A DNA stretch of 64,000 nt, taken from assembly GCA_009783855.1 (NCBI GenBank), contig WRCO01000002.1, positions 25,038 to 89,037 on the forward strand, given 5' to 3'. Positions 3,678 to 62,925 of the stretch are shown here, one piece after another. A model generated the notes under the pieces. That model saw only the letters and a program-made list of their open reading frames with translations. It made no database searches and was not told the origin of the DNA. Every line of letters begins with the position of its first letter. Position 1 is the first letter of the stretch. The DNA comes from Alphaproteobacteria bacterium. GTDB taxonomy: Bacteria; Pseudomonadota; Alphaproteobacteria; Rs-D84. The position numbers and the translations under genes are program-made.

Positions 3678-4388
3678 TCAGGGATTCGTAAAGGTGTTGA
3701 GCGCCACGGAACGGAAAGTGGCGTCCATGTTCGCGTCCGCGCAACCGCTTGGGCAAATAAAGGCGCAATCGGCGGCGGTCGAGTCGGTCCTGCGGAACAC
3801 CCACACGCCATTAGCGCCGTCGGAACGCCGTTTCAAACGGCACCAGCATTGACGAGTTGTGCCGCTGAAAGGAATTGCGGGGAGGGCGGGATCGCCCTGG
3901 ACCGCCCAAGTGCCCGTGGTGGGGCTGCACGTCGATTGAACCCAATATGTCGGATAGACGCCGACATTTGTCAGGCCGGCATTCCTGGCTGTAGAGTTGA
4001 AATCCCTTACAGATTGTCCGCCGAAATTATTGGGCAGGCCATGTTGCCCGCCATTCCATGTATAAATTTGCGGATAGTCCGCCGAGATTGTGGTGAATGT
4101 ATGGTTGGGGGGCGGAGTCAGACTGAAAATATCGCCGCCAGGCATCCGGAGGGACAGGCGGCCGGGCGCCGTGTCGCTGGTCAGGAAGCCGTACCATATG
4201 TCGCCTTCGGGCATCCGGACGGCAAGCGCGGGCGAGCTTCTCTTGTCGGATGTCAATATAACCGCCTGGGGGCCGATGTGCATAGTTCGGATTGTTGCCG
4301 CATGCGCGGATATCGCAATCAGCAATCCGATAAGAACTGGAACGAGTGATTTCAATTCAAAACCCCTGTTGCACAATAAAACCGCCAA
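3678..4388 (-). CDS. hypothetical secreted protein (signal peptide, 8 Cys)
   Basis: N-terminal signal LVPVLIGLLIAISAHAATI. No recognisable domain. Sits between the accBC and rnpA-yidD blocks. Confidence 0.4.
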   Translation of the reverse strand: MAVLLCNRGFELKSLVPVLIGLLIAISAHAATIRTMHIGPQAVILTSDKRSSPALAVRMPEGDIWYGFLTSDTAPGRLSLRMPGGDIFSLTPPPNHTFTTISADYPQIYTWNGGQHGLPNNFGGQSVRDFNSTARNAGLTNVGVYPTYWVQSTCSPTTGTWAVQGDPALPAIPFSGTTRQCWCRLKRRSDGANGVWVFRRTDSTAADCAFICPSGCADANMDATFRSVALNTFTNP

Positions 4389-4674
4389 GGGAATTGACGG
4401 TCGGGGAGTTTGTAAATCAGTCTATGATTGATTCCGTGGTTTTTGTCCGCCGCGCTTGCACGCATCGGGACTATTGTATAGCCACCGGCCCCCCGACCAA
4501 AGTCGGGGACATAACGGTGCGTTTGCACCATTACATCATAGATAACGATGCAATCGCACCGCATAGACTGGGCTTACAATAGCCCCGAACCCAAATCCCT
4601 TTGGATTCATCAGTATTATAAGGAATTAATCATAAAAAACAAAGGATAAAAAACAGCCGACACCGGCGCAACTG

Positions 4675-5514: not shown

Positions 5515-7683
5515 ATGGTATTTGGTAAACTATTCAAAAAAGATGAAAAAGCACAGTTAAACCACCCGGTCTCGGTTTCGATGGAAATCGGCGGCAAGGT
5601 GCTTACCCTTGAAACCGGACGCTTTGCAAAACAAGCGACCGCATCCGTTATGGCCACGATGGGACAGACCATGGTGCTTGCGTCCGTGGTTGCGGAAAAG
5701 ACCGCCGTCGAAGGACAGGACTTTTTCCCATTAACCGTGGATTATCAAGAAAAATTCGCATCCGCCGGAAGAATCCCGGGTTCGCGCGACCGCCGCGAAG
5801 GCCGCACCACGACAGCGGAAACATTGACAGCGCGCCTTATCGACCGGCCCATACGCCCGCTTTTCCCCGATACTTTCAAAAACAAGGTTCAGATTACGGC
5901 GACATGCTTTTCGTATGACAAGAAAAACAGCCCGGATATTTTGGCGATGATTGCGTCAAGCGCGGCTTTGGCGATATCCGGCGTTCCGTTCGGCGGTCCC
6001 GTCGGCGCGGTGCGCGTGGGATACGACGACAAGGGATATGTTTTGAATCCGGATGTCAAAACACTTGATGACTTGGAAATGGACCTTGTCGTCGCGGGCA
6101 CCAAAGACGGCGTTTTGATGGTCGAATCCGAAATCGGCGAATTGGATGAAAAGACAACGCTTGGCGCGGTTAAATTCGGTTTTGACGCGTTCCAGCTGGT
6201 CATCAAGCTTGTCGAAGAATTGAAAGAAAAAGCGGGCAAAGAAGCGTGGGCGGCCGAAGAGCTTGCCCCCGAATACAAAGCCATGCAGAAAGACTTTGAA
6301 CAGTTCGCGGGCGAAATCGAAGCGGCGCTTGGCATTTCCGACAAACTGCCGCGCCGGGATACCTTGGCATCCATACGGGACAAGGCTTTGGCGCGCATAC
6401 CGGAATTGTTTCCGGAAAGCAAGATTGCCGCCGGCACCTTGAAATCATGGGGGGCGGAAATTGTCGACGTCCTGGGTGGGCGCATTATGCGCGAAAGCAT
6501 TCTGGCGGGAAATCCCCGCGTCGATGGCCGCGACAATAAAACCGTGCGCCCCATCGAGTGCGAGGTCGGCATCCTTCCGCGCGCGCATGGTTCGGCATTG
6601 TTCACACGCGGCGAAACGCAAGGCCTGGTCACTTTGACGCTTGGCGGCACATCGGACGCTTTGCCGATTGAAAACATGGGCGGCAAGTCCGAAGAAGGTT
6701 TTATAATGAACTATAACTTTCCGGGATTTTCGGTGGGTGAGGCGAAAATGCTTCGCGGACCCGGGCGCCGTGAAATCGGGCATGGAAATTTGGCGCTTCG
6801 CGCTTTGCGCCCGATGCTTCCGACAAAGGACAAGTTTGATTACACCGTCCGCATAGTATCGGACATTTTGGAATCCGACGGGTCGTCGTCAATGGCGACG
6901 GTATGCGGCGGAACGCTTGCCATGATGGACGGCGGTGTGCCGATGACCAAACCGGTCGCGGGAATCGCCATGGGCCTTATCAAAGAAGGCGACAAGTATG
7001 CCGTGCTTTCCGACATTCTGGCGGACGAAGACCATCTTGGCGACATGGATTTCAAGGTCGCGGGAACCAAAGACGGAATCACTTCGTTGCAGATGGACCT
7101 TAAAATCACATCCGTGAATTTCGACATTATGGAAAAAGCATTGGCCCAGGCGCGCGAAGGCCGCATGCACATACTTGACGTCATGTCCGACGCGATTAAA
7201 TCGCCGCGCAAGGAACTTTCCGAATTCGCGCCCCAGGCGTTTGTCATGAAAATCCATCCGGATAAAATCCGCGAAGTGATTGGAAAGGGCGGAAGCGTCA
7301 TCAAATCCATCACCGCGGAAACGAACACCGGTATTGACCTGTCGGACGACGGCACCGTGAAAATCATGTACACGGACATTGCGGACCGCGACGCGGCGGT
7401 GGAAAGAATAAAATCCATTGTCGCAGAACCCGAAGTCGGCATGATTTACGAAGGCGTCGTGTCCGGTAAAAAGGATTTCGGACTGTTCGTGAAAGTCATG
7501 AACGGCACATTCGAATCCATGGTCCATATTTCCGAAATCACGGGCGAACGCTTGAACACCATCGAAGATGCGAAACTTTCCGAAGGCGACAAAGTGTTTG
7601 TGAAGTACCTTGGGCTTGACAAGCGTGGCAAAACCCGCATGAGCATGGTCGGAATCAATCAAAAAACGGGAGCGGAGAAATAA
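5515..7683 (+). CDS. pnp: polyribonucleotide nucleotidyltransferase (PNPase)
   Basis: 722 aa. Two RNase PH domains, a KH domain (IREVIGKGGSVIKSITAETNTGIDL) and an S1 domain. FFPLTVDYQEKFASAGRIPGSRDRREGR matches the PNPase N-terminal motif. Confidence 0.95.
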   Translation: MVFGKLFKKDEKAQLNHPVSVSMEIGGKVLTLETGRFAKQATASVMATMGQTMVLASVVAEKTAVEGQDFFPLTVDYQEKFASAGRIPGSRDRREGRTTTAETLTARLIDRPIRPLFPDTFKNKVQITATCFSYDKKNSPDILAMIASSAALAISGVPFGGPVGAVRVGYDDKGYVLNPDVKTLDDLEMDLVVAGTKDGVLMVESEIGELDEKTTLGAVKFGFDAFQLVIKLVEELKEKAGKEAWAAEELAPEYKAMQKDFEQFAGEIEAALGISDKLPRRDTLASIRDKALARIPELFPESKIAAGTLKSWGAEIVDVLGGRIMRESILAGNPRVDGRDNKTVRPIECEVGILPRAHGSALFTRGETQGLVTLTLGGTSDALPIENMGGKSEEGFIMNYNFPGFSVGEAKMLRGPGRREIGHGNLALRALRPMLPTKDKFDYTVRIVSDILESDGSSSMATVCGGTLAMMDGGVPMTKPVAGIAMGLIKEGDKYAVLSDILADEDHLGDMDFKVAGTKDGITSLQMDLKITSVNFDIMEKALAQAREGRMHILDVMSDAIKSPRKELSEFAPQAFVMKIHPDKIREVIGKGGSVIKSITAETNTGIDLSDDGTVKIMYTDIADRDAAVERIKSIVAEPEVGMIYEGVVSGKKDFGLFVKVMNGTFESMVHISEITGERLNTIEDAKLSEGDKVFVKYLGLDKRGKTRMSMVGINQKTGAEK

Positions 7684-7767
7684 AGGTGGCTGGTGCTGGT
7701 GATTCGTGGGTTTGGAAATTATTACAACTTCACGTCACCAGCCGCCACTGAACGAAGTGAGCGAAAG
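7684..7767. repeat. family A palindromic repeat (GGTGGYTGGTG / CACCAGCC arms); its 3' end gaacgaagtgagcgaaagATG abuts a start codon
   Basis: aggtggctggtgctggtgattcgtgg ... cacgtcaccagccgccact. The same tail (aacgaagtgagtagaaATG) precedes infB at 19745-19757. Confidence 0.65.
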
Positions 7768-16642: not shown

Positions 16643-16677
16643 TCAGTTGTTAGTCGTTAGCTGTTAATTGTTAATTC
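16643..16677. repeat. family B repeat between lptG and lptD
   Basis: attcagttgttagtcgttagctgttaattgttaattcg. Confidence 0.65.
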
Positions 16678-17749
16678 GCGGTCTTACGCCCGCAAGTATG
16701 AAAAACAAAACGGTTATGGCCAAGACCTGTCCCGCAAGGATTCCGAAAAAGCCCCAAAGCCCAATCGCCAAATCGCCAAGCACCATAAAAGCCGCCATCG
16801 CAAGAGACATCCCAAGCGTCGCCATCGGCGCCGCCATATTGAACCCGGCGCGGCGAAGGAGAGAGGATTTAAGCAGCGCGGCAAGGGCGATAAGGGCAAG
16901 CACAATACTCATAAGCGGGCCCAAAAACCTTGTCGACATTTCGGATAAAATGCGCCGCTGGTCCCTTGGGCGGAACGTGTCAAGCCTTTGCGCTTCGCGA
17001 ATCAGATCCAGCGAAGACAAACGCCGCACACGGAATATATTTCCGGGGTCCCTGTCCGCAAGGTTCAAATCCATATCCATTGAATCAAAGGTGCCGACGG
17101 CGAAGTTTTCATCCCTGAACTGTACGCTTCCCCTTTCCATCGCGATTGAAAGCCCGCGGTCGGTATGGATAAGTTTTCCGCTGTCGGCCGATATTATCAT
17201 CTGGTTTTTTGTGTCGCGGTTGTCGAAAAGCATCAATCGCGACAAATACGTTCCGGCGACCTTTTCAACAAAGACCACAAGCCCGCGCGACATCTGCGTG
17301 AATGTCGCCTCTTGCAATTTCAGGTGCGCAAGGCCGAACCGCATGTTCCATTGGGTGTCGTAAAACTTTGCCTGGGTCGCCGGCACGACAAACATATTCA
17401 TTGCGAAATGAAGCGCGACGATGAGCCCCGCAAACACAAGCGCGGGTCGCGCAACCTGCAGGGGGGAAAGACCCGCCGCCGCCGCAACCGTGATTTCGCG
17501 ACCCGATATAAGCCGCACATACACGAACATAATCGCGATAAATGTGGAAAACGGAATTATAATGGAAAGAATCAGGGGAAGCATCATGGCCGTAAGCCCA
17601 AGAAATCCGACAAGACTTATCCCGTATTGAATAAGAAAGCGCAGCATCGAAAGTATCTGCATCATCCAGGCAAGTCCGGCCAAGACAAGCAGCAGCATTA
17701 TAAAAAATGCAACAAGCTGTTTTGTGAAATAGTTCGATAGGGTTCTCAT
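16664..17749 (-). CDS. lptG: LPS export ABC permease LptF/LptG family (YjgP/YjgQ)
   Basis: 361 aa, 6 TM. YjgP/YjgQ-type architecture with a periplasmic beta-jellyroll insert. Immediately upstream of lptD. Confidence 0.75.
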   Translation of the reverse strand: MRTLSNYFTKQLVAFFIMLLLVLAGLAWMMQILSMLRFLIQYGISLVGFLGLTAMMLPLILSIIIPFSTFIAIMFVYVRLISGREITVAAAAGLSPLQVARPALVFAGLIVALHFAMNMFVVPATQAKFYDTQWNMRFGLAHLKLQEATFTQMSRGLVVFVEKVAGTYLSRLMLFDNRDTKNQMIISADSGKLIHTDRGLSIAMERGSVQFRDENFAVGTFDSMDMDLNLADRDPGNIFRVRRLSSLDLIREAQRLDTFRPRDQRRILSEMSTRFLGPLMSIVLALIALAALLKSSLLRRAGFNMAAPMATLGMSLAMAAFMVLGDLAIGLWGFFGILAGQVLAITVLFFILAGVRPRINN

Positions 17750-17872
17750 TCGTGGTTGGTGGCCCGTGCCGGTGGTTCGTGTCCGAGGTCGTATTCTAGT
17801 ACAATGGAGAATAATATCAAATTATTTTTATAAATCCGAACCACCGGCCGCCAACACGAACACGAATCACGA
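17750..17872. repeat. family A palindromic repeat (long copy) abutting the lptG start codon
   Basis: cgtggttggtggcccgtgccggtggttcgtg ... ccgaaccaccggccgccaacacgaacacgaatcacg. The arms are reverse complements with an AT-rich centre. Confidence 0.7.
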
Positions 17873-17982
17873 TTTTCCTTGCATTTCCCCGATTCGTAGT
17901 TAATAATCCCCGTGTTCTTTAATAAATTAATTAGAGAGCGGGTTCGTAAAAGAGCCCGCTCTTTTAAGTAAGATGGTGGTTG

Positions 17983-18083
17983 GTGTTGGCGGTTGGTGAT
18001 TCGTGTTTTGGATTTTTGGGCAATAACATCCATAAATTCACGTCACAAGCCATCGGCGCGAACCACCGACCACGAAACGACTA
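17983..18083. repeat. family A palindromic repeat upstream of nusA
   Basis: gatggtggttggtgttggcggttggtgattcgtg ... cgcgaaccaccgaccacgaaacg. It ends 15 nt before the nusA GTG start and supplies the aaggag RBS context. Confidence 0.7.
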
Positions 18084-18098
18084 ACAAGGAGTGCGAAC

Positions 18099-19670: not shown

Positions 19671-19757
19671 TTCGTGTTGGCGGCTTGTGCTGGTGGCTGG
19701 TATATGCCACGAATCACCAGCACAAGCCACCAGTCACAACGAACGAAGTGAGTAGAA
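19671..19757. repeat. family A palindromic repeat between nusA and infB
   Basis: ttcgtgttggcggcttgtgctggtggctgg ... ccacgaatcaccagcacaagccaccagtcac, followed by aacgaagtgagtagaaATG (infB start). Confidence 0.7.
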
Positions 19758-25847: not shown

Positions 25848-25989
25848 CGTGACTTGTGTTGGTGGCCCGTGGTTCGGGGCCAGGGTAATTTTTCAATTGT
25901 GTTTTGTTATTTTCGCCACTATTATATAACAGAAAATAACAAAAGCAAAGTATTCCGTAATACGGTCTACAAGTCACCAGCACGGAGAA
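25848..25989. repeat. family A-related composite repeat (GGTGG arms flanking an AT-rich core)
   Basis: gtgttggtggcccgtggttcgggg ... caagtcaccagcacgg. Confidence 0.5.
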
Positions 25990-29966: not shown

Positions 29967-29971
29967 AACAA

Positions 29972-30066
29972 AGAGCATAGGGCACAGATAAGTGTTGAAA
30001 TTAAAAAGATATTTTACGGATATTAAAAAAGCATCTATGCTCTATGCTCTATGCTCTATGCTCTTG
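29972..30066 (+). promoter_or_regulatory. conserved 5' cassette E1 plus (CTATGCT)x4 heptamer tract preceding the bamB-like gene
   Basis: cacagataagtgttgaaattaaaaagatattttacggatattaaaaaagcatct followed by atgctctatgctctatgctctatgctc. Near-identical copies are at 38930-39003 and 53440-53530; a diverged copy is at 40925-41040. Confidence 0.7.
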
Positions 30067-30765: not shown

Positions 30766-30861
30766 CGCCGGCCACCAGCGCGAGCCGCCAACACCATTTT
30801 TTCCTTGCCCCCAGGCGATAAGTTTTCTAGAATCATCATCAAGAGAAAACGGGAGAGACAA

Positions 30862-32708: not shown

Positions 32709-32744
32709 AATAACAGTTGTTAGCTGTTAGTTGTTAGTTTTTAA
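32709..32744. repeat. family B repeat at the 3' flank of the T4CP gene
   Basis: cagttgttagctgttagttgttagttttt. Confidence 0.65.
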
Positions 32745-34980
32745 CTTCCCTTGTCTCCCCCGTCCCGTAATCGTATACTTTCGGCACGCCGGGGTACCCC
32801 ATTGTCGCGTGGTGCGACGGGACAAGAAATTCGGGCAACGCCGCCGCGCGCGGAATATCGGTAAGTTTGAACAAATCTTTTTCTTTGCCCGGCCAGACCC
32901 ACGGGACGTCCGCCTCAATCGGGCGATGCGGATAGCCCTGTAAAATCACAAGAAGTTTATCCGAATCAAGTTTCATTATGTCCATCGGACTGTAAAGCAG
33001 CGCCGCTTCTTTTTTGTCGTCTTTTACTTCGCCGGTTTTGTCGTCCGTCTTTTCTTCAATCTTTTTCTGGTATCCTATCATCCTGCTGAACTTGTCCGCA
33101 GTGTCGTAACTGTTTTGACGGAACACAAGTTTCACCGCTGTTGTCGATATTATGGTTTCGGCGGCGTCCGCACCGTATTTGTCCCGGATTTGGGCAATAT
33201 CCTGACCGATTATAAGATACGAAACCTGTTGTCCGCGGCCAAGGTCGGGCCCCTGAATCACAGCCTGCATCTTTTGCATTTTCGGCATTTCGTCCAGCAC
33301 GAACAAGACCGGCGTCGGCCCCAGTTTTTGACCGGCATGCGTATCTTCCGGCTTGTTGGTAAGAAGAAACGCCGACATAAGTTCGATGAATATCGCGCTT
33401 ATCGGATTCAATGCCTCCGCATCGACCATGTTTATGGAAAGGTAAACGGTAACCGGCTCCCACTTTCCCGTCTTTTTGTTTTTGATTCCGCGCAAATCGG
33501 AAAAATGAAAATCGGAATGCGACGTGCGGTTGCGGACGGCCGCGTTTCGGAAAATGTTAAGCCCCGACAATGCCGTCGACATAATCGACCCGCGTTCCTT
33601 GTCCGGCGTGTTTGCAAGCTGTGTAAGTTCTTGGATGGACCGGTGCGCGTATCCGTATTGGCGCGCCTCTTCGACCGCGTCGTGGAACAAATCCTTCATC
33701 GGGTCGGCCATCATCACCATCTGGTCGCCTTGTTTGCGCCTGTCTTCCAATTCTTCGGCGATTCTTATCTGGTTCGTGGTAAGCCAGTCAAGAACCATGG
33801 AAAGCGACGCCTCTTTGCCAACCCATGCGGCCGGTATATTCGCCCAGGTTCCGACGGGAACATAATTCGCGGCCGACAAAGCGCCCGTGGAAAGCATATG
33901 CCGCGCCGCCGCCGCGTTCGGGTCCCGCATCATCGCATACCGTTCGTCAAGAAGGACTCTGTCGGTCTGGTCGAATGTTCCGGAATCAAGGCGCGATTTG
34001 AAATAATCGTTCCATTTTGCGCGCTCTACCTTTGACACAATAAATTGTAAGAATCCGGTAAGCGCCGCGCGGCCCGTAGTGACCCAGTGCGGGTCGGCGG
34101 ACGACGTCGCCTTGTCCGCGACAAGCGTCGCGCAAATAGAGTCTATATAAAGGTCGCGTTTTTCTTGAACAAACGGCACGTGTTCGGGCGACAACGGATT
34201 CCACGACGGATAATATATGCCGCGTTCCGGGTCGTCTTGACCCGCCCAGTTTATGATGAACACCGGACCGATGCCCGCGCGGTACCCGCTTGTCAAAGCG
34301 TCCAATTCAGGTTTGGGGTCGTTGACAATCATGGACACCTTATCGCATTTGAATATGGTCGGCATAACTATGCCGCGGGATTTACCGGACCCCGGCGGCG
34401 CGACGCAAAGCGCGGACAATGTTTCGTCCAGCATAAGGAATTTCTTTTTGAATTTGCCAAGGACGATTATAAAACCGCCGAACAGGCCTTCTTTGTTCTT
34501 TTTGTCGCGGCCCATGCCCTTTACATCATTTTCGTTCGCCTTGCGGGAAGAATCGTCCGCCCACCAGTTCGTGCCATGCGGATTAAATTCGCCAAGGAAC
34601 GTCGGAATCGTAAGCAAATGATACGCGATTATTGCAAACAAGGGCGTAATAACCGGTAAATCGGGGCGAAGGACCGCGCGGACAAGCCATGCCGGAATCT
34701 CTGCAAAAATGCGCAGACCGAACGTATGCAGAATCTGGTCGAAATAAACATGAAGCCACGTGATTGTCGCCGGGCTCCACCCGTACCGCCATATATGCTC
34801 GATTGCAAAGGAAAGTCCGAACGCGGCGATGGATGCAAACCAGGCAAGGAAAAGATAACGGTATTTCCAGAACACAAGGCGCATGTGCGTCCGTTTGTCG
34901 CCCTTGTACGCGTCGGACGAAAAGATGCCAAGGCCCTTGCCTTTACCGCTTACAGATAAGATGTTGAACTTTGCAACCAT
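32734..34980 (-). CDS. type IV secretion coupling protein (VirD4/TraG/TrwB family ATPase), orphan
   Basis: 748 aa. N-terminal TM pair. Walker A LCVAPPGSGKSRGIVMPT (compare VirD4/TraG xAPTRSGKGVGxVIPN). Walker B PVLFVLDEMPKM. No other T4SS genes are adjacent. Confidence 0.6.
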   Translation of the reverse strand: MVAKFNILSVSGKGKGLGIFSSDAYKGDKRTHMRLVFWKYRYLFLAWFASIAAFGLSFAIEHIWRYGWSPATITWLHVYFDQILHTFGLRIFAEIPAWLVRAVLRPDLPVITPLFAIIAYHLLTIPTFLGEFNPHGTNWWADDSSRKANENDVKGMGRDKKNKEGLFGGFIIVLGKFKKKFLMLDETLSALCVAPPGSGKSRGIVMPTIFKCDKVSMIVNDPKPELDALTSGYRAGIGPVFIINWAGQDDPERGIYYPSWNPLSPEHVPFVQEKRDLYIDSICATLVADKATSSADPHWVTTGRAALTGFLQFIVSKVERAKWNDYFKSRLDSGTFDQTDRVLLDERYAMMRDPNAAAARHMLSTGALSAANYVPVGTWANIPAAWVGKEASLSMVLDWLTTNQIRIAEELEDRRKQGDQMVMMADPMKDLFHDAVEEARQYGYAHRSIQELTQLANTPDKERGSIMSTALSGLNIFRNAAVRNRTSHSDFHFSDLRGIKNKKTGKWEPVTVYLSINMVDAEALNPISAIFIELMSAFLLTNKPEDTHAGQKLGPTPVLFVLDEMPKMQKMQAVIQGPDLGRGQQVSYLIIGQDIAQIRDKYGADAAETIISTTAVKLVFRQNSYDTADKFSRMIGYQKKIEEKTDDKTGEVKDDKKEAALLYSPMDIMKLDSDKLLVILQGYPHRPIEADVPWVWPGKEKDLFKLTDIPRAAALPEFLVPSHHATMGYPGVPKVYDYGTGETREVKN

Positions 34981-35033
34981 AGTGGTATTATAACATAATA
35001 ACTGACAACTGACAACTAACAGCTAACAACTAG
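34981..35033. repeat. family B repeat at the 5' flank of the T4CP gene
   Basis: aactgacaactgacaactaacagctaacaac. Confidence 0.65.
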
Positions 35034-35035
35034 AG

Positions 35036-35722
35036 ATGAAAAATATACCAAGGATTTATATAAATGAAAATTTGGAAGTTGGGCGAAGTTTCCCGGTGTC
35101 CAGGGACATCGCGCATTATTTGACCCGTGTTATGCGAACGGACAGATGTTTGGTGTTCAATTATGGAAAAGAGTTCAAGGCTGAGCTTTCAGTTGTCAGC
35201 TGTTCGTTGTTAGTTGTCAGTCCTACTGGGCGGCCCGACCCGTCGAACAATTTGACGCTTGCGTTCGCGCCGGTAAAACAGGCGCGGATGGAGGAAATGC
35301 TTTCCATGGCGACCCAGATGGGCGTAAAAAGGCTTCAGCCCGTAATCACTGCCTTTGTAAATGAACATCATCCGAAATGGGAAAGGATTAAAAAAATTGT
35401 CATAGAGGCGGCGGAGCAATCCGGAAGAAACAGCGTGCCGGAATTGGCAGAGCCGCAAAAATTTACAGAATTTCTGCAGGGGGTAAAAGACTTGGTTTTT
35501 GCGGACGAACGGGCCGCGAGCCCCCGGTCCTTTCCAGATTCCGGGCTTGCGTTGCACGCGCCCCGGAATGACACAATCGTTTTGATAGGGTCAGAGGGCG
35601 GATTTTCAGACGCGGAATTTGATGCGCTGGACAAAGCGGGCGCGACTGGCATAAACCTTGGGCCGACAATTCTTCGGGCGGAGGTCGCTGCGGTGGTGGC
35701 GATTGCGAAAGTTGTTGGTTAA
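35036..35722 (+). CDS. rsmE: 16S rRNA (uracil1498-N3)-methyltransferase RsmE, with an in-frame family B repeat insertion
   Basis: N-terminus MKNIPRIYINENLEVG. SPOUT C-terminal IVLIGSEGGFSDAEFDALDKAGATGINLGPTILRAE. Residues ELSVVSCSLLVVSPTG are encoded by repeat 35188-35222. Confidence 0.8.
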   Translation: MKNIPRIYINENLEVGRSFPVSRDIAHYLTRVMRTDRCLVFNYGKEFKAELSVVSCSLLVVSPTGRPDPSNNLTLAFAPVKQARMEEMLSMATQMGVKRLQPVITAFVNEHHPKWERIKKIVIEAAEQSGRNSVPELAEPQKFTEFLQGVKDLVFADERAASPRSFPDSGLALHAPRNDTIVLIGSEGGFSDAEFDALDKAGATGINLGPTILRAEVAAVVAIAKVVG

Positions 35723-38923: not shown

Positions 38924-38929
38924 AAATAG

Positions 38930-39003
38930 AGCAAAGACAATAGAGCGCAGATAAATGTTGAGATTAAAAAGATATTTTACGGATATTAAAAAAGCATCTA
39001 TGC
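38930..39003 (+). promoter_or_regulatory. conserved 5' cassette E2 (no heptamer expansion)
   Basis: cgcagataaatgttgagattaaaaagatattttacggatattaaaaaagcatctatgct. Confidence 0.7.
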
Positions 39004-40310: not shown

Positions 40311-40426
40311 GGCGGTTGGTGGCCCGTGCCGGTGGTTCGTGGTAAAATAAAAATTTGATATTATCGCTTATTGTAATAAAATGCGAATCACGAAGGCGAG
40401 TCACCAGCCGCCAACACGGACCACCA
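40311..40426. repeat. family A palindromic repeat ending at the start codon of the zinc-ribbon protein
   Basis: ggcggttggtggcccgtgccggtggttcgtgg ... cgagtcaccagccgccaacacggaccaccaATG. Confidence 0.7.
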
Positions 40427-40924: not shown

Positions 40925-41040
40925 CACATAGAACACAGATAATAGAACATAGATAGGAGAACGAACAAATGTTGAGATTCAAAAACAATTTTACAGGTCT
41001 TTGGAAAGCATCTGTGCTCTATGTTCTGTGCTCGATGCTC
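40925..41040 (+). promoter_or_regulatory. diverged conserved 5' cassette E3 with degenerate heptamer tract
   Basis: acagataatagaacatagataggagaacgaacaaatgttgagattcaaaaacaattttacaggtctttggaaagcatctgtgctctatgttctgtgctcgatgctc. Confidence 0.55.
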
Positions 41041-41493
41041 TTGGTCTCGGCGCGAGCCGCGCCGACATGTCCGCCGTGCGTATGCCCGTCCATACCGCCG
41101 TCGATTTTTTCGACAAGCACGGATTGGGAAGCGGTGACGGGGATGCGCCTTTCCGAATTTATGGTTTCGTTCGGTCGCGATGGAAGCATCGGCAATATCG
41201 GGTGGGAGATATATTTCCTTGACGGATTTCCATGCTATGGCCAATCGGAGACCGCGCGCATGTGGGTAAGTCCGTCGCGCCATTACGCAATCGACGGCGG
41301 CGCCGACGCGCGCGGCCGCATCACGTGCCTTTATGCGCCGAAAACCGTAAAGCTTGCATGGCGCGAGGCAAGGCGCGACGCGGCGCAGGCGCGCACACGC
41401 GGGATGGCCGTTTGCGAAGTGGAGCACAGCGGACGGAACATCACAATCCGATTGGACAAATGCGAAAGGACGGATTGGGGTGATTTGCGATAA
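40969..41493 (+). CDS. hypothetical secreted Cys-rich protein (174 aa)
   Basis: Signal peptide after the cassette leader. APTCPPCVCPSIPP motif. 8 Cys. Confidence 0.4.
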   Translation: MLRFKNNFTGLWKASVLYVLCSMLLVSARAAPTCPPCVCPSIPPSIFSTSTDWEAVTGMRLSEFMVSFGRDGSIGNIGWEIYFLDGFPCYGQSETARMWVSPSRHYAIDGGADARGRITCLYAPKTVKLAWREARRDAAQARTRGMAVCEVEHSGRNITIRLDKCERTDWGDLR

Positions 41494-46807: not shown

Positions 46808-47017
46808 CTAAAACTTGAAGCCGTCGAATTTCTTTTTGAACTTGTCCGCCTGCTGGCCTTTGTCCACGGACTGTTTCTGGCCGGTCCATGCGGTGTGGTT
46901 AAGGTTGTCGACGGACAAAACCTGGTCCTTTTTAACGCTTGAATACATTTTCACGGTCTTGCCGTCGGTCATCGTCACGTTGATTTCGTGATACGCCGGA
47001 TGAATGTTTTTTTTCAT
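46808..47017 (-). CDS. rpmE: 50S ribosomal protein L31 (type B, non-zinc)
   Basis: MKKNIHPAYHEINVTMTDGKTV... Confidence 0.8.
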   Translation of the reverse strand: MKKNIHPAYHEINVTMTDGKTVKMYSSVKKDQVLSVDNLNHTAWTGQKQSVDKGQQADKFKKKFDGFKF

Positions 47018-47254: not shown

Positions 47255-47797
47255 TTAATACCCGCCGATACAGCCAAGATATGAATTGCCCGTGCCCTCG
47301 ACAAGTGATATGAATTTCTTTTTATTCCGACCGGAAAAAAGTCCCAAAATAGTCCCCGCATCCGTCGCAAGCATATCAAGCGACAACGCAACGCCCGTAT
47401 TCATCTTTTTGAAAAACGAACTTGACGGATGGATTTCGGCCGTAAATAAACGTGAGCCGTCGCGCTTGTGCGCGCCGAGGCTTTGGGCGCGGGATGATTT
47501 TCCTATGACCATTAAATGACAATCCGCGGAAAGGATGATTTTGCCCGTGACTTTTACGTCTTCGTTGCCAAGAAGGCCGCCCCACCAGCCGACGGAATCC
47601 ACAAACACTGGGATATAAAGTTCCGCATCGGGGTTTGTTGCGAAAAAATCCGAAATATCCGGCTCTGTATGAATGACGCGCGGCATCTGGCCGGTCGCTG
47701 CGAAAATCTCTTTGCGCGCGGCGGCATAGAGCGAATCGCCCCGTGTACGCTTCGTGCCGTAAAAAAGTACCGGGTATGCAGTCGATTCGGGCTTCAT
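47255..47797 (-). CDS. hypothetical protein (180 aa)
   Basis: Intact ORF. No motif recognised. Confidence 0.3.
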   Translation of the reverse strand: MKPESTAYPVLFYGTKRTRGDSLYAAARKEIFAATGQMPRVIHTEPDISDFFATNPDAELYIPVFVDSVGWWGGLLGNEDVKVTGKIILSADCHLMVIGKSSRAQSLGAHKRDGSRLFTAEIHPSSSFFKKMNTGVALSLDMLATDAGTILGLFSGRNKKKFISLVEGTGNSYLGCIGGY

Positions 47798-47816
47798 TTC
47801 AAGGGATTATATCATA

Positions 47817-48036
47817 ATTAGTGGCTGGTGGCTAGTGATTAGTGGTTGGTGGTTTGTGGCTTGTGCCGGTGACTGGTACGGTTGTCTGATATATTAGACA
47901 ATCATTAATTAACGCATAAATTAAAGGCTGTCCACTATAGTGGACAGCCTTTAATTACAGGCCATTAATACGAACCACCGGCACGAGTCACGAGCACGAA
48001 TCGCCAGCACAAGCCACAAGCACAAGTCACCGGCCA
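47817..48036. repeat. largest family A composite palindromic repeat (~220 bp) with central perfect palindrome ggctgtccactatagtggacagcc
   Basis: Left arm tggtggctagtgattagtggttggtggtttgtggcttgtgccggtgactgg. Right arm cgaaccaccggcacgagtcacgagcacgaatcgccagcacaagccacaagcacaagtcaccgg. Confidence 0.7.
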
Positions 48037-48040
48037 TCAA

Positions 48041-49366
48041 TCACTTCTGAAGGCCCGCGTATGTTTTTTTGACGCCGCTCCAAAGGCCTTTGCCCTGCTC
48101 CTTTGCCTTGTTATAATATTCTTCGGGCACCTTTATACCCTTGAACAGGTTGTTTATTATCGCCGGAATCGACGTCATGAAAAATCCGATAAACAAACCC
48201 GCCATGATTATTGTAACCAGGCTTGTATTCTGAAGCGTAAGACCGTCCATAAGATACCGCGAATCATTGTTCTCCAACGCCGTTTGCAGCAAATCCGAAC
48301 CCTGGAACTCTCCGAACATCGCATTCAAAAACATCACCGCAAACACGACAAGGACGGCGACCGCAACAATGCCAACCGTATTCTTGACAAGGTCGTCTAT
48401 CATACCCTTAATCTTTTCGCCTTTGGCGCCCGGCATGACTTTCCAATCGCTGAACACCCAGCCCAAAAGAAACAGCGGAAGCATTATCAAATCCAACGAA
48501 ATCCGCATAATCGTTTCAAGAAAATACATCGGAATCGGAAGCAGCGCCATAAAAAACAAAAATATGATTATCGCACCCGCCGCAATAAGACCCATGTTCG
48601 GAAATATCGGTATATCCCACAAAAATGTGTGCATATAACGCACATCGAACGCAGAATTAAGCAGTGTCCAGCCGACAGTCATGCCAAGCCCCGTCATCTT
48701 GTGAATCCCGCCCAATTGACAGGTCAGATTATGCCGAAGCCTTGGCGAAAATATCCCGTCCGGCGAACCTGTGCTGCCTTCGGCGATTGCGGTTGCGATG
48801 ATGCAGGCTTCGAACGCATGCCTGTTTCCTTCGTCGGCAAACCTGTCCGCCGCGCCGCGGCCAAGCGACAGGCCGGTGTTGAATACAGGCTCTATCAGCG
48901 CGCCGCCGATAATCTTTGGAAGCGGCGCCAAAAGCAGCGCGCTGACAAATATAAGCTTTACAAGCAGAATACCGAATTTCTCGGCAAGCGTCCACGCGCC
49001 GCCTTCTTTTTTCATATCAACCTCGGCGCCTTTTGCGCCTATCCAGCTTGAAATGACGGTCCATGCGACCCAAACCGCCGCAAGCCCAAGCGATATCGGA
49101 ATCACGGCAAGCCCGACAGCCCTGTATATCCTTGGCACAAAGTCGGAAAGCGACGCGACAACGCCGCCGAACATGCCGCATGTCCAACAGCTTGAAAAGA
49201 ATGTAAGCGCGCCCGACATATCAACCGGCGCAAAAGACCTGTATATCGAAAATCCGATGATGCCGCCCCCAGCGGCGATGCCGCCGATGGCAAGCATCGA
49301 AATCGCCGACGCCGATAACGGAAACAGCGCAAGAAATGCGGGAAAAAGTTTTTTTAATTTATCCAC
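48041..49366 (-). CDS. polytopic membrane protein, paralog P1 of a 5-gene family (signal peptide; CWTCGMF motif)
   Basis: 441 aa, at least 8 TM. SSCWTCGMFGG. C-terminal tail KKTYAGLQK is shared with P2 and P5. Divergent from P2. Confidence 0.4.
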   Translation of the reverse strand: MDKLKKLFPAFLALFPLSASAISMLAIGGIAAGGGIIGFSIYRSFAPVDMSGALTFFSSCWTCGMFGGVVASLSDFVPRIYRAVGLAVIPISLGLAAVWVAWTVISSWIGAKGAEVDMKKEGGAWTLAEKFGILLVKLIFVSALLLAPLPKIIGGALIEPVFNTGLSLGRGAADRFADEGNRHAFEACIIATAIAEGSTGSPDGIFSPRLRHNLTCQLGGIHKMTGLGMTVGWTLLNSAFDVRYMHTFLWDIPIFPNMGLIAAGAIIIFLFFMALLPIPMYFLETIMRISLDLIMLPLFLLGWVFSDWKVMPGAKGEKIKGMIDDLVKNTVGIVAVAVLVVFAVMFLNAMFGEFQGSDLLQTALENNDSRYLMDGLTLQNTSLVTIIMAGLFIGFFMTSIPAIINNLFKGIKVPEEYYNKAKEQGKGLWSGVKKTYAGLQK

Positions 49367-53434: not shown

Positions 53435-53439
53435 TAGAA

Positions 53440-53530
53440 CATGGATGGAGCACAGATAAGTGTCGAGATTAAAAAGATATTTTACGGATATTAAAAAAGC
53501 ATCTATGCTCTGTGCTCTGTGCTCTGTGCT
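53440..53530 (+). promoter_or_regulatory. conserved 5' cassette E4 plus (CTGTGCT)x4 heptamer tract
   Basis: cacagataagtgtcgagattaaaaagatattttacggatattaaaaaagcatctatgctctgtgctctgtgctctgtgctc. Confidence 0.7.
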
Positions 53531-54932
53531 CTTTTGCGGCTTTGCCGCAGATGCCGCGCCGGTAAGCAATATTCCGGGCGCCATTGCCGAATACGGCCAT
53601 TGGAATACAGATGAAACCCTTCGCCCCATGGTCGACGGAATCCGCAGTGATATAGCCGCGTTCGAAGCCGGGTTCGCAGAACAAGTATTTACCCAAGGTG
53701 ACCAGTTCGTGCCGCCCGAGGCGAAAATCGGACTTGCCATGATTAACGCGTTCACGATGGTCGCGCAATCAATCGACCGGACGCTTGGAAGTTTTGTCAT
53801 CGCGCTTCTTGTCGTTCTGTTCGCGTTCTGGGTGATGATGGAAACGTACCAGGTTATGAAGACCGGCGGCAATATAAGAGAACTTGCAATGAAAATCGTG
53901 CGCAAGGGTTTGTGGATTGCCGTATGGATTATCATACTGGCGTTCGGGCCCGCGCGATTATTCATGATGGTCGCAAGCCCGGTTATACAGGCGGGTATAA
54001 TCATGTCCGACCTTATACTTGATACCATGACCGAAGTCGCGGGCCTGCATCTTCTTGACACATGCGGCGCGATAAGGGGGTATGTCGCGGAAAGGCATAC
54101 GGGCGCCGGGCTTTTCAATGCGGAAGCCACGGCAGATATGCTTTGCATCCCGACAAGGCTTTCCGGATTCTTTTACACGTGCGTCGCGGCGGGATGGAAA
54201 TGGGTGGCGGCGGGCGCCGGAAATGTCTGGGCGGCGGGAACAACCGCGGTGGCGGGCGGGGTCGGCGGCGCCCTTCTTGGCGGCGGAGTGGCCGGGACGC
54301 TTGCCGGAGCCGGCGTCGGCGCCCTGACCGGCGGCGCGATAAGCGGCGGCAACATGCTTACATTCATCATGGGCCTTATATTTATCGCCATATTCGCGCG
54401 CAATATCTGGCTTTTCGCAATCGAAGCGCTTGGTGTTGTGGCAAGTCTTTTCCTTGCCGTCATGTTCTTGCCGTTCACCGCCGTCGCGGAATGTTTCGGG
54501 GGCGGCGAGACAAGCCTTAAAGACCGGGGGATATTCACGGAATTCTTCAAAATGCTTGCCAATATGGTCGGCGGCGGAAAATTGAAATTCCGCGGCCAGC
54601 TTCAGACATTCATAAACGCCGCGATTTATTTTGTGGCCTTGTCCGTTGTGTCTGCCATCGGGCTTGCCCTTCTTGCACAGGTCATCGGACCAAGTCCCGC
54701 GGATTTTGCGGACTCCGTCCCGACGGCGGAAAACAGCACAAGTTTCATGATGGTGCTTGTCGTCGGAATGCTTGTGTCGCATCTTGCCAAAAAGGCGGGC
54801 GATATTGCAAAAGACCTTGGCGGGTCCATAGATGCCGAATTTGGGAAACGGCTTGACGCACAGGCGCAATCTTTACGCGGCTGGGCGGTAGGCAGCGCAA
54901 AGAAATGGTACGGGGTGTTTAAGGGGAAATGA
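53460..54932 (+). CDS. polytopic membrane protein, paralog P5 (cassette-type leader; Gly-rich GxxxG segment)
   Basis: 490 aa. Signal MLCALCSVLFCGFAADA. AGTTAVAGGVGGALLGGGVAGTLAGAGVGALTGG. C-terminus AKKWYGVFKGK. Confidence 0.4.
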   Translation: MSRLKRYFTDIKKASMLCALCSVLFCGFAADAAPVSNIPGAIAEYGHWNTDETLRPMVDGIRSDIAAFEAGFAEQVFTQGDQFVPPEAKIGLAMINAFTMVAQSIDRTLGSFVIALLVVLFAFWVMMETYQVMKTGGNIRELAMKIVRKGLWIAVWIIILAFGPARLFMMVASPVIQAGIIMSDLILDTMTEVAGLHLLDTCGAIRGYVAERHTGAGLFNAEATADMLCIPTRLSGFFYTCVAAGWKWVAAGAGNVWAAGTTAVAGGVGGALLGGGVAGTLAGAGVGALTGGAISGGNMLTFIMGLIFIAIFARNIWLFAIEALGVVASLFLAVMFLPFTAVAECFGGGETSLKDRGIFTEFFKMLANMVGGGKLKFRGQLQTFINAAIYFVALSVVSAIGLALLAQVIGPSPADFADSVPTAENSTSFMMVLVVGMLVSHLAKKAGDIAKDLGGSIDAEFGKRLDAQAQSLRGWAVGSAKKWYGVFKGK

Positions 54933-57350: not shown

Positions 57351-57428
57351 TTCGTGGTTCGTGATGGTGGTTTGTAAGTTTGGTTGCCGGTGGAAAAATC
57401 CCCGCAAACTTATACCATGAACCACGAT
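57351..57428. repeat. family A repeat in the ftsW-murG spacer
   Basis: ttcgtggttcgtgatggtggtttg ... ccatgaaccacgataaaaaacc. Confidence 0.6.
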
Positions 57429-57446: not shown

Positions 57447-58526
57447 ATGAAAATATGGATAGCCACAGGCGGAACGGGCGGGCATGTGTTCCCGGCGCTT
57501 GCCGTTGCGGCGGAACTTGTAAAGCGAGGCGACCGGGTCATAATATCCGCCGACGGGCGCGTTCAAGAAATGATTCGCAAAAACAAACCGGCGGGCGCGG
57601 GCACCGCGTTCGTATGGGCGTCCGGCGTCGGCGCAAAATCGTCCGTCCGGCAATTAATCGCGTTGTTCAAAATCGGATGTTCGGCGTCGGCGCTTGCCCT
57701 TCGCTTTATGGTTTTGCGCCCGGACAAGGTTGTCGCGTTCGGCGGATACGCGTCCGTTCCCGCAATACTTGCCGCGCGCGCGTTTCGCATTCCGACATAC
57801 CTTCACGAACAGAACGCGCATATCGGCCGCGCGAATCTGTTTGCGTTGCGCTGGGTCGACGTGCTTATGACATCGTTTCCGAAAGTGTCCGGTATTCGGC
57901 ATTCGGATACGGTATCCGGCAAACTACGCGTTGTTTATACCGGTCTTCCGGTTCGGAAAGATTTTATAGATGCCGCGTCCGAATACCGAATACCGAATGC
58001 CGAATACCGGCTGTTGATAACCGGAGGAAGTTTGGGCTCGCAGATTCTGGACGATGTTGTGCCGAACGCTGTGGCGGCGCTGTCCGCGTCCGTCAAGAAA
58101 AAGCTTTTCGTCGTTCATCAAACGCGGCCGGATGCCGTTGCCCGTCTGCAAAGGTTTTACGCCCACAACGGAATCCGCGCGAACGTTCTGTCGTTCATAC
58201 ACGACATGGCGGCGCAGATGGCGGCGGCCGACCTTGTCATTTCGCGCGCGGGCGCAAGCACCGTCGTCGAATTGCAAACCGTGGGCCGGGCGGCGATTCT
58301 GGTGCCTCTTGCCATCAATCCGGACCAGCCGGCGAATGCGGACGCATTCGCGAAAACCGGCGCCGGATTCAATGTGGCGCAAAGCAAATTTACGGTCAAA
58401 TGGCTGTCGGCAACGCTTGCCGAATTGTTTTCCAATCCCGCGCGGCTTCTGAAAATGAGCTCAAGGGCCCGACAGGAAAACAACGCCGTTGAAAATATAA
58501 TAAAGACGCTGGGCATTGATAGTTAA
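57447..58526 (+). CDS. murG: UDP-N-acetylglucosamine--N-acetylmuramyl-(pentapeptide) pyrophosphoryl-undecaprenol GlcNAc transferase
   Basis: RBS ggagg. MKIWIATGGTGGHVFPALAVA. GT28 C-terminal ITGGSLGSQ. Confidence 0.9.
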   Translation: MKIWIATGGTGGHVFPALAVAAELVKRGDRVIISADGRVQEMIRKNKPAGAGTAFVWASGVGAKSSVRQLIALFKIGCSASALALRFMVLRPDKVVAFGGYASVPAILAARAFRIPTYLHEQNAHIGRANLFALRWVDVLMTSFPKVSGIRHSDTVSGKLRVVYTGLPVRKDFIDAASEYRIPNAEYRLLITGGSLGSQILDDVVPNAVAALSASVKKKLFVVHQTRPDAVARLQRFYAHNGIRANVLSFIHDMAAQMAAADLVISRAGASTVVELQTVGRAAILVPLAINPDQPANADAFAKTGAGFNVAQSKFTVKWLSATLAELFSNPARLLKMSSRARQENNAVENIIKTLGIDS

Positions 58527-58536
58527 AGGTTGCAAA

Positions 58537-59181
58537 ATGAAAATAAAAACAAAACGAATCACCAGCACAAGCCACCGGCCACGAATCGTCCTGTTCGATT
58601 TCGACGGGACTTTGTCGTCGCACGATACGAATGTAGAGTTTGGGAAATATTGCTTCAGACATTCGTCAAGACCTTGGCTTTTTCTGCCCGTTGTTGCGGC
58701 GGGGGCGGTCCTTAAATGGGCTGTCGGACATGACCGCGGATTCCGGGTTCGCAAAATCGACATCGTATGGCGACAGATGGTACGGTGTTTTATTACGTCC
58801 AAGATGGCGAAAAAACTCGCGCCGGGATTTGTCCGGGAACATAAAATGCGTCGGTTCGGATGGGCCGCCGAACAGGTCGCTAAAGAACGAAAAGCTGGGA
58901 ATTTCGTGATACTTTCAAGCGCGACGCCTTCGTATCTGATTCTGCCTCTTGTATCCGATATGGATTTCGATTTGATAATCGCGTCACAGGTTGATTCAAA
59001 GCGCCCGTGGAAAATAAAATTCCTTAACTGGGGCCATAACAAGGTTATGGCGCTTGAAAAGGTCATAGCGGGGCGCAAAGTCGTCCGCGCTTATTCGGAC
59101 AGCGCTTTCGACACGCCAATGATGGATTTGGCAAAGGAACAGGTTTGGATTAATCCAAAAACCGGATGTCGGGAAAATTAA
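58537..59181 (+). CDS. HAD-superfamily hydrolase (HAD-IB/phosphoserine phosphatase-like); N-terminus encoded by a family A repeat
   Basis: IVLFDFDGTL motif I. Residues ITSTSHRPRI derive from repeat 58558-58587. Confidence 0.5.
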   Translation: MKIKTKRITSTSHRPRIVLFDFDGTLSSHDTNVEFGKYCFRHSSRPWLFLPVVAAGAVLKWAVGHDRGFRVRKIDIVWRQMVRCFITSKMAKKLAPGFVREHKMRRFGWAAEQVAKERKAGNFVILSSATPSYLILPLVSDMDFDLIIASQVDSKRPWKIKFLNWGHNKVMALEKVIAGRKVVRAYSDSAFDTPMMDLAKEQVWINPKTGCREN

Positions 59182-62827: not shown

Positions 62828-62925
62828 TTATAGATATCAGATAGTAGATAGTAGATAAAAAAGTGTCTACTATAGTAGACAACTTAAAATTCATTGGAAT
62901 AATTCCGGAATACTATGTCTATTAT

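Follow-up and report, generated by a model that had tools for sequence, protein, structure and literature searches.

We analyzed a 64-kb stretch of DNA from an alphaproteobacterium (contig WRCO01000002.1; the whole stretch is called the window here) that carries a family of inverted repeats with GTG-rich arms, Family A, next to genes that include pnp, nusA, infB, der, ftsW and murG. The original prediction had listed ten copies, among them the flagged copy A7 between two minus-strand genes, and all ten proved to be present to within ~10 nt. Eight of these loci consist of paired arms (A1 to A8), and the two at 30775 and 58558 are solo CA-type arms (H10 and H9; Table 1). The relatives used for comparison are metagenome-assembled genomes (MAGs) of uncultured gut Alphaproteobacteria and metagenome contigs, labelled with L-numbers (L002, L090 and so on). 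The genomes nearest to the window are MAGs of uncultured Alphaproteobacteria from the gut, for the most part that of termites, together with MAGs of the 'Candidatus Enterousia' type; their InfB identity is 80-69%. The nearest metagenome relatives reach a NusA identity of 92-93% (L090 92%; L148, further off, 84%). The window itself matches ENA metagenome contigs of sample ERZ27257304.

Family A consists of paired inverted arrays of short units

Family A is a genuine repeat family of hairpin formers, far beyond chance. The motif GGTGGYTGGTG, allowing at most one mismatch, occurs 17 times in the window against 0.82 expected, and none of 100 shuffles reached 17. Runs of at least three GTG at 3-4 nt spacing number 13, compared with 0.86 expected under a Markov model; 12 of the 13 fall in the listed copies, where only the HAD hydrolase copy is genic, and the thirteenth belongs to another flavour. 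These GTG-period arrays are enriched in intergenic DNA, which holds 11 of the 13. The arms had been described as GGTGGYTGGTG...CGTG and its reverse complement, and the first of these motifs is indeed in excess, but the arms are not fixed sequences. Each repeats a degenerate 6-7-nt unit, nGTGnn[n], 3-9 times in tandem and is opposed by a reverse-complement array. When cut at each GTG, the internal units comprise 35 heptamers and 20 hexamers (for example GGTGGTT, GGTGGCT, TGTGCT, CGTGTT, GGTGATT, GGCGGCT and CGTGCC). Individual arms are not palindromic, and their ends read TTCGTG...CACGAA. All eight paired copies of the window follow the order 5'-GT arm...CA arm-3', as do 17 pairs found in relatives.

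The long hairpins that had been proposed were confirmed by folding: all eight full copies fold as single strands, with free energies (dG) of -30 to -112 kcal/mol and z-scores of -4 to -11. For A7, dinucleotide shuffles gave a z-score of -8.2 for the RNA of the transcribed strand and -9.8 for DNA. In the window, the better fold is that of the plus strand whatever the gene direction, as at A7 with its minus-strand genes, which is probably a matter of compositional skew.

Similarity between copies extends beyond the short GGTGG motif. Different arms have 78 12-mers in common, compared with 8.5 +/- 4.8 when units are shuffled, and 20 16-mers, compared with 0.4, and A2 and A6 are 79% colinear. At the same time, the arms are mosaics of shared words with no single consensus, and no colinear alignment of the whole set of copies is possible. 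We found no full-length consensus with internal sequence; only A2 and A6 are colinear, and the other cores are unique or ancestral (the A3 core, for instance, occurs once in the window). Arm co-evolution specific to each element was considered and rejected, since a left arm pairs with the right arms of other elements as well as with its own (permutation p = 0.36). An Rfam covariance-model scan of the window at gathering score returned two tRNAs only and no match to the arrays.

Table 1. Family A copies and adjoining genes in the window (dG in kcal/mol; SD, Shine-Dalgarno sequence; RBS, ribosome-binding site; ORF, open reading frame)
Feature	Position	Strand	Parts and fold	Context
A1	7684-7750		GT arm 7684-7710, CA arm 7729-7750; dG -29.9, z -4.5	Between pnp stop (7683) and ORF 7768
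A2	17750-17872		GT arm 17750-17788, CA arm 17836-17872	GT arm adjoins LptF/LptG-family ATG (17749, minus strand); CA arm adjoins nusA promoter
A2 core promoter	17820-17793	minus	TTGATA-16-TAGAAT	
A3	17972-18076		Hairpin; dG -42.1	nusA 5' leader, between conserved AGAGCGGG...CCCGCTCTTTT stem-loop and nusA RBS
A4	19671-19741		dG -41.3, z -7.6	Begins right after nusA stop; ends 3 nt before GAACGAAGTGAG (infB leader/RBS motif, from 19741)
A5	25848-25987		Arms 25848-25882 and 25965-25987	Around divergent der/orf25994 promoter core with 13-bp inner palindrome
A6	40311-40426		GT arm 40311-40343, CA arm 40384-40426	CA arm runs up to zinc-ribbon gene ATG 40427
A6 core promoter	40355-40382	plus	TTGATA-16-TAAAAT	
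A7 (flagged copy)	47817-48036		GT arm 47817-47879 (9 units), CA arm 47969-48036	Between two minus-strand genes
A7 core	47919-47956		Perfect 19-bp-arm palindrome, GTCCACTATAGTGGAC centre; small hairpin 47883-47902	
A8	57351-57428		Arms 57351-57375 and 57410-57428	Right after ftsW stop; murG SD (GGAGG) and ATG (57447) downstream
H9	58558-58587	plus	Solo CA-type arm	In HAD hydrolase ORF (58537-59181), coding residues 8-17
H10	30775-30800	plus	Solo CA-type arm	Downstream of stop at 30765; adjoins promoter-like TTTTTTCCTTGCCC
pnp	5515-7683			Pfam assignment
LptF/LptG-family gene	16664-17749	minus		ATG at 17749
nusA and infB				Adjoin A2-A4
der				Adjoins A5, divergent from orf25994
Zinc-ribbon protein gene	ATG 40427			Adjoins A6
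Two genes without assigned function	48041-49366 and 47255-47797	minus		Flank A7
ftsW				Followed by murG
murG	57447-58526			Followed by HAD hydrolase gene
HAD hydrolase gene	58537-59181			

A TraG/VirD4-type type IV secretion coupling protein gene also lies in the window, amid housekeeping genes (32734-34980, minus strand).

Arms occupy the slack between codons and essential signals

The arms fill spare DNA that separates a start or stop codon from the closest essential signal. A1, A4, A6 and A8 begin 0-3 nt past a stop codon, and A1, A3, A4 and A8 stop 2-12 nt (typically 3-9) before an intact SD. The enclosed middle is a sigma-70-like promoter in A2, A6 and probably A5, a terminator-like palindrome in A7, and only a few bases in A1, A4 and A8. 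No T-run follows the arm hairpins, and canonical terminators occur elsewhere in the window (e.g., 22511, 24468, 31906 and 45489). A role as intrinsic terminators was therefore rejected for lack of a U-tract, only the inner palindrome of A7 being terminator-like; judged from their sequences, A1, A3, A4 and A8 are read-through hairpins. A8 does not adjoin the ATG of lptG, as had been supposed: the gene there is murG, with its ATG 18 nt away, and it is A2 that adjoins an LptF/LptG-family ATG.

Part of the A7 core recurs elsewhere. The palindrome GTC[CT]ACTATAGT[GA]GAC is found at 47930-47945, within that core, and at 62865-62880 (two in the window against 0 expected). It sits in an A/T-flanked stem resembling a bidirectional terminator and forms the core of array-flanked elements of differing flavours, with GTG-type arms in A7 and TAGATAG-type arms at 62828-62925; in L157 the arms are again TAGATAG-type, and the site is upstream of the nusA promoter.

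A2 and A6 have the same layout of GT arm, sigma-70-like promoter, CA arm and ATG, without an SD. A6 is homologous to A2, although the promoter likeness of their cores may in part be promoter consensus, as L174 has a similar promoter without arrays. In L002, L012 and L045, lptF appears leaderless, with TATACT read 7 nt before its ATG; the CA arm in the window would therefore constitute a new lptF leader of ~36-45 nt. Many genes of the clade appear leaderless or nearly so, with an extended -10 element (TTATGATATAAT or TATACT) 6-8 nt before the ATG and no SD; examples are window 47798-47815, the L170-L172 spacers and the region upstream of lptF in the same three relatives. The extended -10 promoter TGATATAAT of gene 47797 sits immediately outside A7.

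The sequence GAAGTGAG is found in the window only at A1 and at A4 (infB). The A1 3' flank (7751-7767, GAACGAAGTGAGCGAAAG) provides an infB-type RBS context outside the hairpin, with GAACGAAGTGAG in common with the infB leader. A1 and A4 in fact match on both flanks, which hints that a hairpin may have been copied along with an infB-type RBS. The original prediction had counted this RBS ('aacgaagtgag') as part of the element. Its counterpart GAACGAAGTGAG is kept in L090, which has CCGTAAC arms, and in L005, which has AGAGTAA arms; because it is kept whatever the arm flavour, it belongs to the ancestral infB leader and not to the element. The broader idea that the elements supply translation signals is thus correct only in part: A2 and A6 offer a core promoter and an SD-less CA leader running into the ATG, which A6 does at the zinc-ribbon gene just as had been described, and A1 has its infB-like flank, but the RBS is not supplied by the element.

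Of the solo arms, H9 is translated, as had been noted, but it encodes part of a 17-residue extension rather than the first ten residues of the HAD hydrolase; the Pfam HAD domain starts at residue 18. The junction between H10 and TTTTTTCCTTGCCC is the same as that between the A2 right arm and the nusA promoter.

Orthologous sites vary in flavour, arms and presence

At orthologous sites, relatives show the same flavour reordered, another flavour, a plain stem-loop, or nothing. The spacer between the nusA stop and the infB RBS (the A4 site) holds GTG-type hairpins in the window and in L012. Its other flavours are CCGTAAC/TTACGGA (L090), ATTTGCG (L091), TTGCTGATTTCGGG (L092), AGTGTAA (L004), AGAGTAA (L005), AAGTTAT (L014), GCAGAGT-type arms (L045, L102 and L122) and a hexamer (L013), and many other relatives have a plain GC stem-loop or a spacer of 3-10 nt. 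In L045 and L122, each arm is homogenized internally, yet the two arms differ by one base per unit. Altogether, stem-loops of unrelated sequence occupy this spacer in at least 33 relatives, most of them without heptamer arrays. Among the spacer hairpins of 32 relatives, the comparison of sense with antisense folds came out at 16 versus 16 (p = 0.84); G:U asymmetry as a sign of RNA-level selection was rejected on this absence of a sense-strand advantage.

The divergent lptF-nusA spacer has a conserved skeleton of lptF ATG, lptF promoter, nusA promoter, AGAGCGGG...CCCGCTCTTTT stem-loop and RBS. Besides the window, A2 occurs in L090, L148, L012, L013, L015, L070 and L069; L002, L045 and L020 lack it. 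Its core promoter is kept in the window, L090 and L148, and its arms differ among these three by 7-, 13- and 14-19-nt indels. A unit change in L148 is mirrored in both arms, [CG]GTG/CAC[GC] having become AGTG/CACT. Since the A2 right arm lies upstream of both predicted promoters, and outside both predicted transcripts, the matching of its arms would not come from selection on RNA. The stem-loop AGAGCGGG-loop-CCCGCTCTTTT (18034-18064), present in the nusA leaders of all relatives between the nusA promoter and the RBS, has no Rfam match and looks from its sequence like a leader terminator or attenuator.

A3 and A7 are lineage-specific as whole elements, core included. Compared with L090, A3 is a clean indel of 113 nt (17973-18085); most relatives lack it, and the distant L012 has an unrelated GTG-type hairpin at this site. 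A7 is an indel of roughly 200 nt; the corresponding spacer in L170 and L171 is 38-40 nt long and holds only the extended -10 promoter TTATGATATAAT, and in L172 it holds an AGTGTAA/TTACACT hairpin. No target-site duplication was recognizable at the A3 junctions when the filled site was compared with the empty site of L090, nor at A7 relative to L170 and L171, which are distant and make for a weaker test. The A6 site is a 12-nt spacer in L173 and a promoter without arrays in L174. Presence or absence of entire elements, raised along with the original prediction, is seen as clean indels at A3 and A7. The A2 core is kept with re-patterned arms in L090 and L148, and L004 and L013 have the A5 core but no arms.

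A divergent spacer of L171 (2323-2500) has gained TTTCTGA/TCAGAAA arrays on both sides of its promoter core, adjoining both start codons; its counterpart in the window, L170 and L172 is only the ~50-nt core. The arms of A2, A5, this L171 spacer and murG (there around the segment coding for VVYTGLPVR) bracket ancestral sequence, which insertion as one piece cannot explain.

Four independent assemblies of the same strain (ERZ27257304, ERZ27257297, JGI 3300010162 and Logan SRR10512951) are 100% identical across A2, A3, A4, A7 and A8, A8 being unchanged in an independent assembly. Near window 46,900-47,000, one ENA assembly breaks into two contigs (k141_1578852 and k141_1578747), and a 96.6-kb contig of the JGI assembly spans the same genes as the window; repeat-rich spacers may break assemblies.

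Family A is one flavour of a wider heptamer-array population

Family A is one flavour among a general heptamer-array phenomenon. At least seven heptamer flavours are present in the window, often as inverted pairs. Self-similar arrays at lag 7 number 20-25, whereas every other lag between 3 and 12 gives 0-4 and a shuffle gives 0. Tandem Repeats Finder reported period-7 units of ATGCCCT, TTTTGAG, AACTGAC, AGAGCAC, AAGGCAT, TCTATGC, CGGTATT, AAAGTGA and TAGATAG; canonical consensus units number 19 in the window, and relatives are similarly diverse. Of the 42 spacers that are 25 nt or longer, roughly half carry an array of some flavour, as counted from the spacer listing. The same texture, with their own and mostly different units, is found in a subset of relatives (L004, L005, L011-L015, L020, L045, L069, L070 and L090). 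Array-bearing relatives are mostly termite-gut MAGs, and L002, the closest complete-genome relative, has no such arrays. L012 has as many lag-8 as lag-7 arrays (7 each) and L013 has hexamers at two sites; therefore, the period in the clade is not strictly 7.

Some arrays reach into coding sequence. Inverted CGGTATT/CCGAATA heptamer arrays lie within murG (57889-58010), where they encode the variable loops SGIRHSDTVSG and SEYRIPNAEYR on either side of the conserved VVYTGLPVR strand; a 69%-identical homolog, P0128, has similar loop peptides. Another flavour, B (AGAGCAC/AGAACAC...GTGCTCT/ATGCTCT), occurs at 29967-30066, 38924-38954, 40925-41041 and 53435-53535, and in L173 at 4385-4520. Its left arm lies in the 5' leader and its right arm ~14 codons inside the ORF, coding for the signal-peptide-like SMLYALCSL, a layout in which the RBS and start codon would fall inside the hairpin. 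The genes concerned have paralogous N-termini (MLKLKRYFTDIKKAS...), and the arms covary, with GAGCA/TGCTC in L173 versus GAACA/TGTTC in the window. A further flavour, C, pairs ACTGACA with TGTCAGT (34996-35032 and 35184-35221) at an rsmE-like gene (35036-35722), its left arm adjoining the ATG and its right arm lying ~50 codons inside the ORF of this RNA methyltransferase; the repeat unit differs from the Beggiatoaceae TAACTGA by 1 base. Prodigal placed starts inside arrays at 7699, 30037 and 53505. Of these, 30037 and 53505 are probably wrong, GTG at 29992 and 53460 fitting better, and in practice the arrays mislead gene callers.

Origin and possible roles of the arrays

We lean, by a narrow preference over doubt, towards reading Family A as the GTG-flavoured subset of lineage-specific, slippage-driven, strand-symmetric paired inverted microsatellite hairpins. 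Replication slippage would create and resize the arrays, in line with the ascription of the heptamer simple sequence repeat (SSR) excess to polymerase slippage (cited in PMC4679880 and PMC4692102). Strand-switch copying across a nascent hairpin, known as quasi-palindrome template switching (PMC7202029), would act jointly with ectopic conversion or segmental copying among elements to hold the two arms, and all copies of a genome, to one unit vocabulary; each lineage would therefore drift to its own flavour. Where both arms fall on one transcript, as predicted for pnp-orf7768, the nusA leader, nusA-infB, ftsW-murG and 48041-47797, the result would be a long hairpin without a U-tract shortly before the next SD, an enlarged form of the simple intercistronic stem-loop of array-free relatives. 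With a promoter in the core, transcription would cover only the CA arm, placing a 36-45-nt SD-less leader on a gene that appears leaderless in relatives. The intercistronic hairpins most likely act in mRNA processing, stabilization or as a roadblock rather than in termination. The one in the nusA-infB spacer probably serves mRNA processing or stability, with the arrays as an elaboration of it, because many array-free relatives keep a simple stem-loop there.

Several observations weigh against this slippage account, which also offers no reason for a period of 7. Distant copies have multi-unit words of up to 28 nt in common, the longest an identical block shared by A2 (17750) and A6 (40311); the reverse complement of A2 is colinear with A6 with the promoter included; A1 and A4 have both flanks in common; A3 and A7 are clean whole-element indels; and polarity is constant, with 17 GT...CA pairs versus 2 apparent CA...GT pairs that are in fact adjacent elements. 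These features suit copy-and-paste at least as well as slippage. Moreover, the four same-strain assemblies contain no unit-number polymorphism, their flanks being identical too. A non-autonomous mobile element resembling a transposable element of the miniature inverted-repeat kind (MITE) or Rickettsia palindromic element (RPE), in which GT arm, core and CA arm moved in trans and inserted by genes, sometimes with a promoter or RBS, draws support from the same copy-and-paste features, from the excess of shared words and from the A1 flank that duplicates the infB leader. We nevertheless consider it distinctly unlikely. MITE/RPE-like behaviour had been put forward in the original prediction, and the A3 and A7 indels, the hairpins and the translated HAD arm agree with it. 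However, neither A3 nor A7 shows a visible target-site duplication, a Pfam search of the 64 kb found no transposase or REP-associated tyrosine transposase (RAYT; REP, repetitive extragenic palindrome), the arms are mosaics and not consensus copies, the cores are unrelated between copies or ancestral regulatory DNA, one orthologous spacer holds many unrelated flavours, and the murG arms flank a conserved coding segment and therefore did not arrive as one piece. It is improbable, though of wider consequence, that the arrays are installed and homogenized by an active, genome-encoded mechanism, REP/RAYT-like or based on template switching, and act as modular brackets. If so, these brackets would insulate both promoters and terminators, form hairpins for processing between cistrons, turn leaderless genes into SD-less genes with CA leaders and write peptide segments such as the murG loops and signal-peptide cores, amounting to a programmable system for remodelling intergenic DNA that is specific to a gut alphaproteobacterial clade.

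The hairpins could instead be mainly selected RNA structures (intercistronic stabilizers, RNase III sites or attenuators, as for REPs and bacterial interspersed mosaic elements, BIMEs), with heptamers the easiest mutational route to a long stem. Very stable folds, the unrelated stem-loops in the nusA-infB spacer, hairpins that begin at a stop codon and end just before an SD, and the covariation of flavour B arms are consistent with this proposal. We find it unlikely as the main explanation, since there is no sense-strand advantage and the plus-strand fold is the more stable even at the minus-strand genes of A7, within-element pairing only equals between-element pairing, solo arms exist (H9 and H10), many relatives are hairpin-free with spacers of 3-10 nt, and the promoter in the core of A2 and probably A5 would leave the arms on different transcripts or untranscribed. 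A sequence-specific function of the GT arm, as an array of protein sites, two-tetrad G-quadruplexes (GGTGGTTGGTGG) or Chi-like signals (GCTGGTGG, within A4 and A7), seems very improbable. The GTG flavour does recur in several genomes at non-orthologous sites with fixed polarity, G-rich heptamer arrays of Xanthomonas form G-quadruplexes (G4; PMC4692102), and GCTGGTGG occurs 4 times against 0.85 expected, three of them in Family A arms; but this excess is marginal (reached in 1/100 shuffles) and follows from the unit vocabulary, the units are degenerate, at least six other flavours with unrelated and often G-poor units have the same architecture, and no protein was identified as a candidate binder. 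That the copies are low-complexity or GC-skewed sequence arisen by chance, without any family, is hardly credible: nothing beyond the short GTG core is invariant and the set has no colinear alignment, but the shuffle controls (17 vs 0.8, 13 vs 0.9, 16-mers 20 vs 0.4) and the hairpin z-scores refute it.

Comparison with known repeat systems

Among the long microsatellites of bacteria, heptamer repeats are the most over-represented, and their origin and function are poorly understood. The clade studied here offers a dense and diverse natural experiment on them, with many flavours per genome and orthologous sites that can be compared across dozens of MAGs. The data reveal mirror pairs around ancestral regulatory cores, arms that evolve in concert, and a reach into leaders and coding sequence. 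They open two questions to testing: slippage with strand switching versus mobile dispersal, and neutral filler versus RNA-processing element. We found no description of this clade's arrays in the literature, the closest reports being PMC4692102 and PMC4679880.

REP and BIME elements are likewise extragenic, placed right after stop codons and genome-specific, and their inverted pairs give hairpins in operon transcripts that are plausible mRNA stabilizers. Unlike them, the arrays have a tandem microsatellite texture, lack the 20-40-nt imperfect palindrome whose head is GTAG or CGTC (as defined in PMC3733652), and have no RAYT in the window. With MITEs and RPEs they have in common inverted termini, a size of 70-220 nt, hairpin potential, some whole-element indels and an occasional location in an ORF. 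Terminal inverted repeats of the MITE kind are thus present, but their complementarity is family-wide and not element-specific. The arrays also differ in having no conserved internal sequence, no target-site duplication seen, arms that flank ancestral DNA and interchangeable pairing between copies. RPEs follow a consensus of ~100-150 bp in-frame in ORFs, whereas no consensus exists here and only one solo arm (H9) is translated.

The closest known system is that of the Xanthomonas GGGAATC inverted heptamer pairs, followed by the cyanobacterial short tandemly repeated repetitive (STRR) heptamers and the Beggiatoaceae TAACTGA direct repeats (MacGregor 2015, PMC4679880). An excess of heptanucleotide SSRs in prokaryotes was described by Mrazek et al. 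2007, as cited in PMC4679880. STRR and TAACTGA repeats resemble the arrays in their heptamer period, intergenic location, frequent ends a few nt from a start codon, patchy phylogeny and proposed origin by slippage, and the window flavour AACTGAC is 1 base from TAACTGA. However, those are almost always direct arrays, with one inverted case in 170 sets, and the inverted pair is the rule here. Rehm et al. 2015 (PMC4692102) describe heptameric intergenic repeats of Xanthomonas (GGGAATC) and Nostoc (GGGGAYT), with 70-75 convergent inverted pairs in each genome for the Xanthomonas type. Like the Xanthomonas type, the arrays described here consist of tandem 7-nt units that are heterogeneous within arrays, are strongly intergenic, come as convergent opposite-strand pairs able to form stem-loops, and vary in length and sequence between related species while the pair type is kept; their G-rich arm could form G4. 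They differ in that Xanthomonas and Nostoc have one dominant unit, compared with at least seven flavours here and Family A units of 6-7 nt in which only GTG is fixed. Moreover, the arms here adjoin start or stop codons, bracket promoter or terminator cores and are in some cases coding, and the host is an uncultured gut alphaproteobacterial clade. The features of heptameric SSRs, namely a 7-nt period, intergenic enrichment, convergent inverted pairs and locus variation between relatives, are therefore all found in these elements, save for a single dominant unit per genome. Taken together, the description that suits Family A best is that of hairpins made of paired, inverted heptamer arrays; these are a variant of a repeat type that is known but poorly understood, and not classical mobile MITEs.

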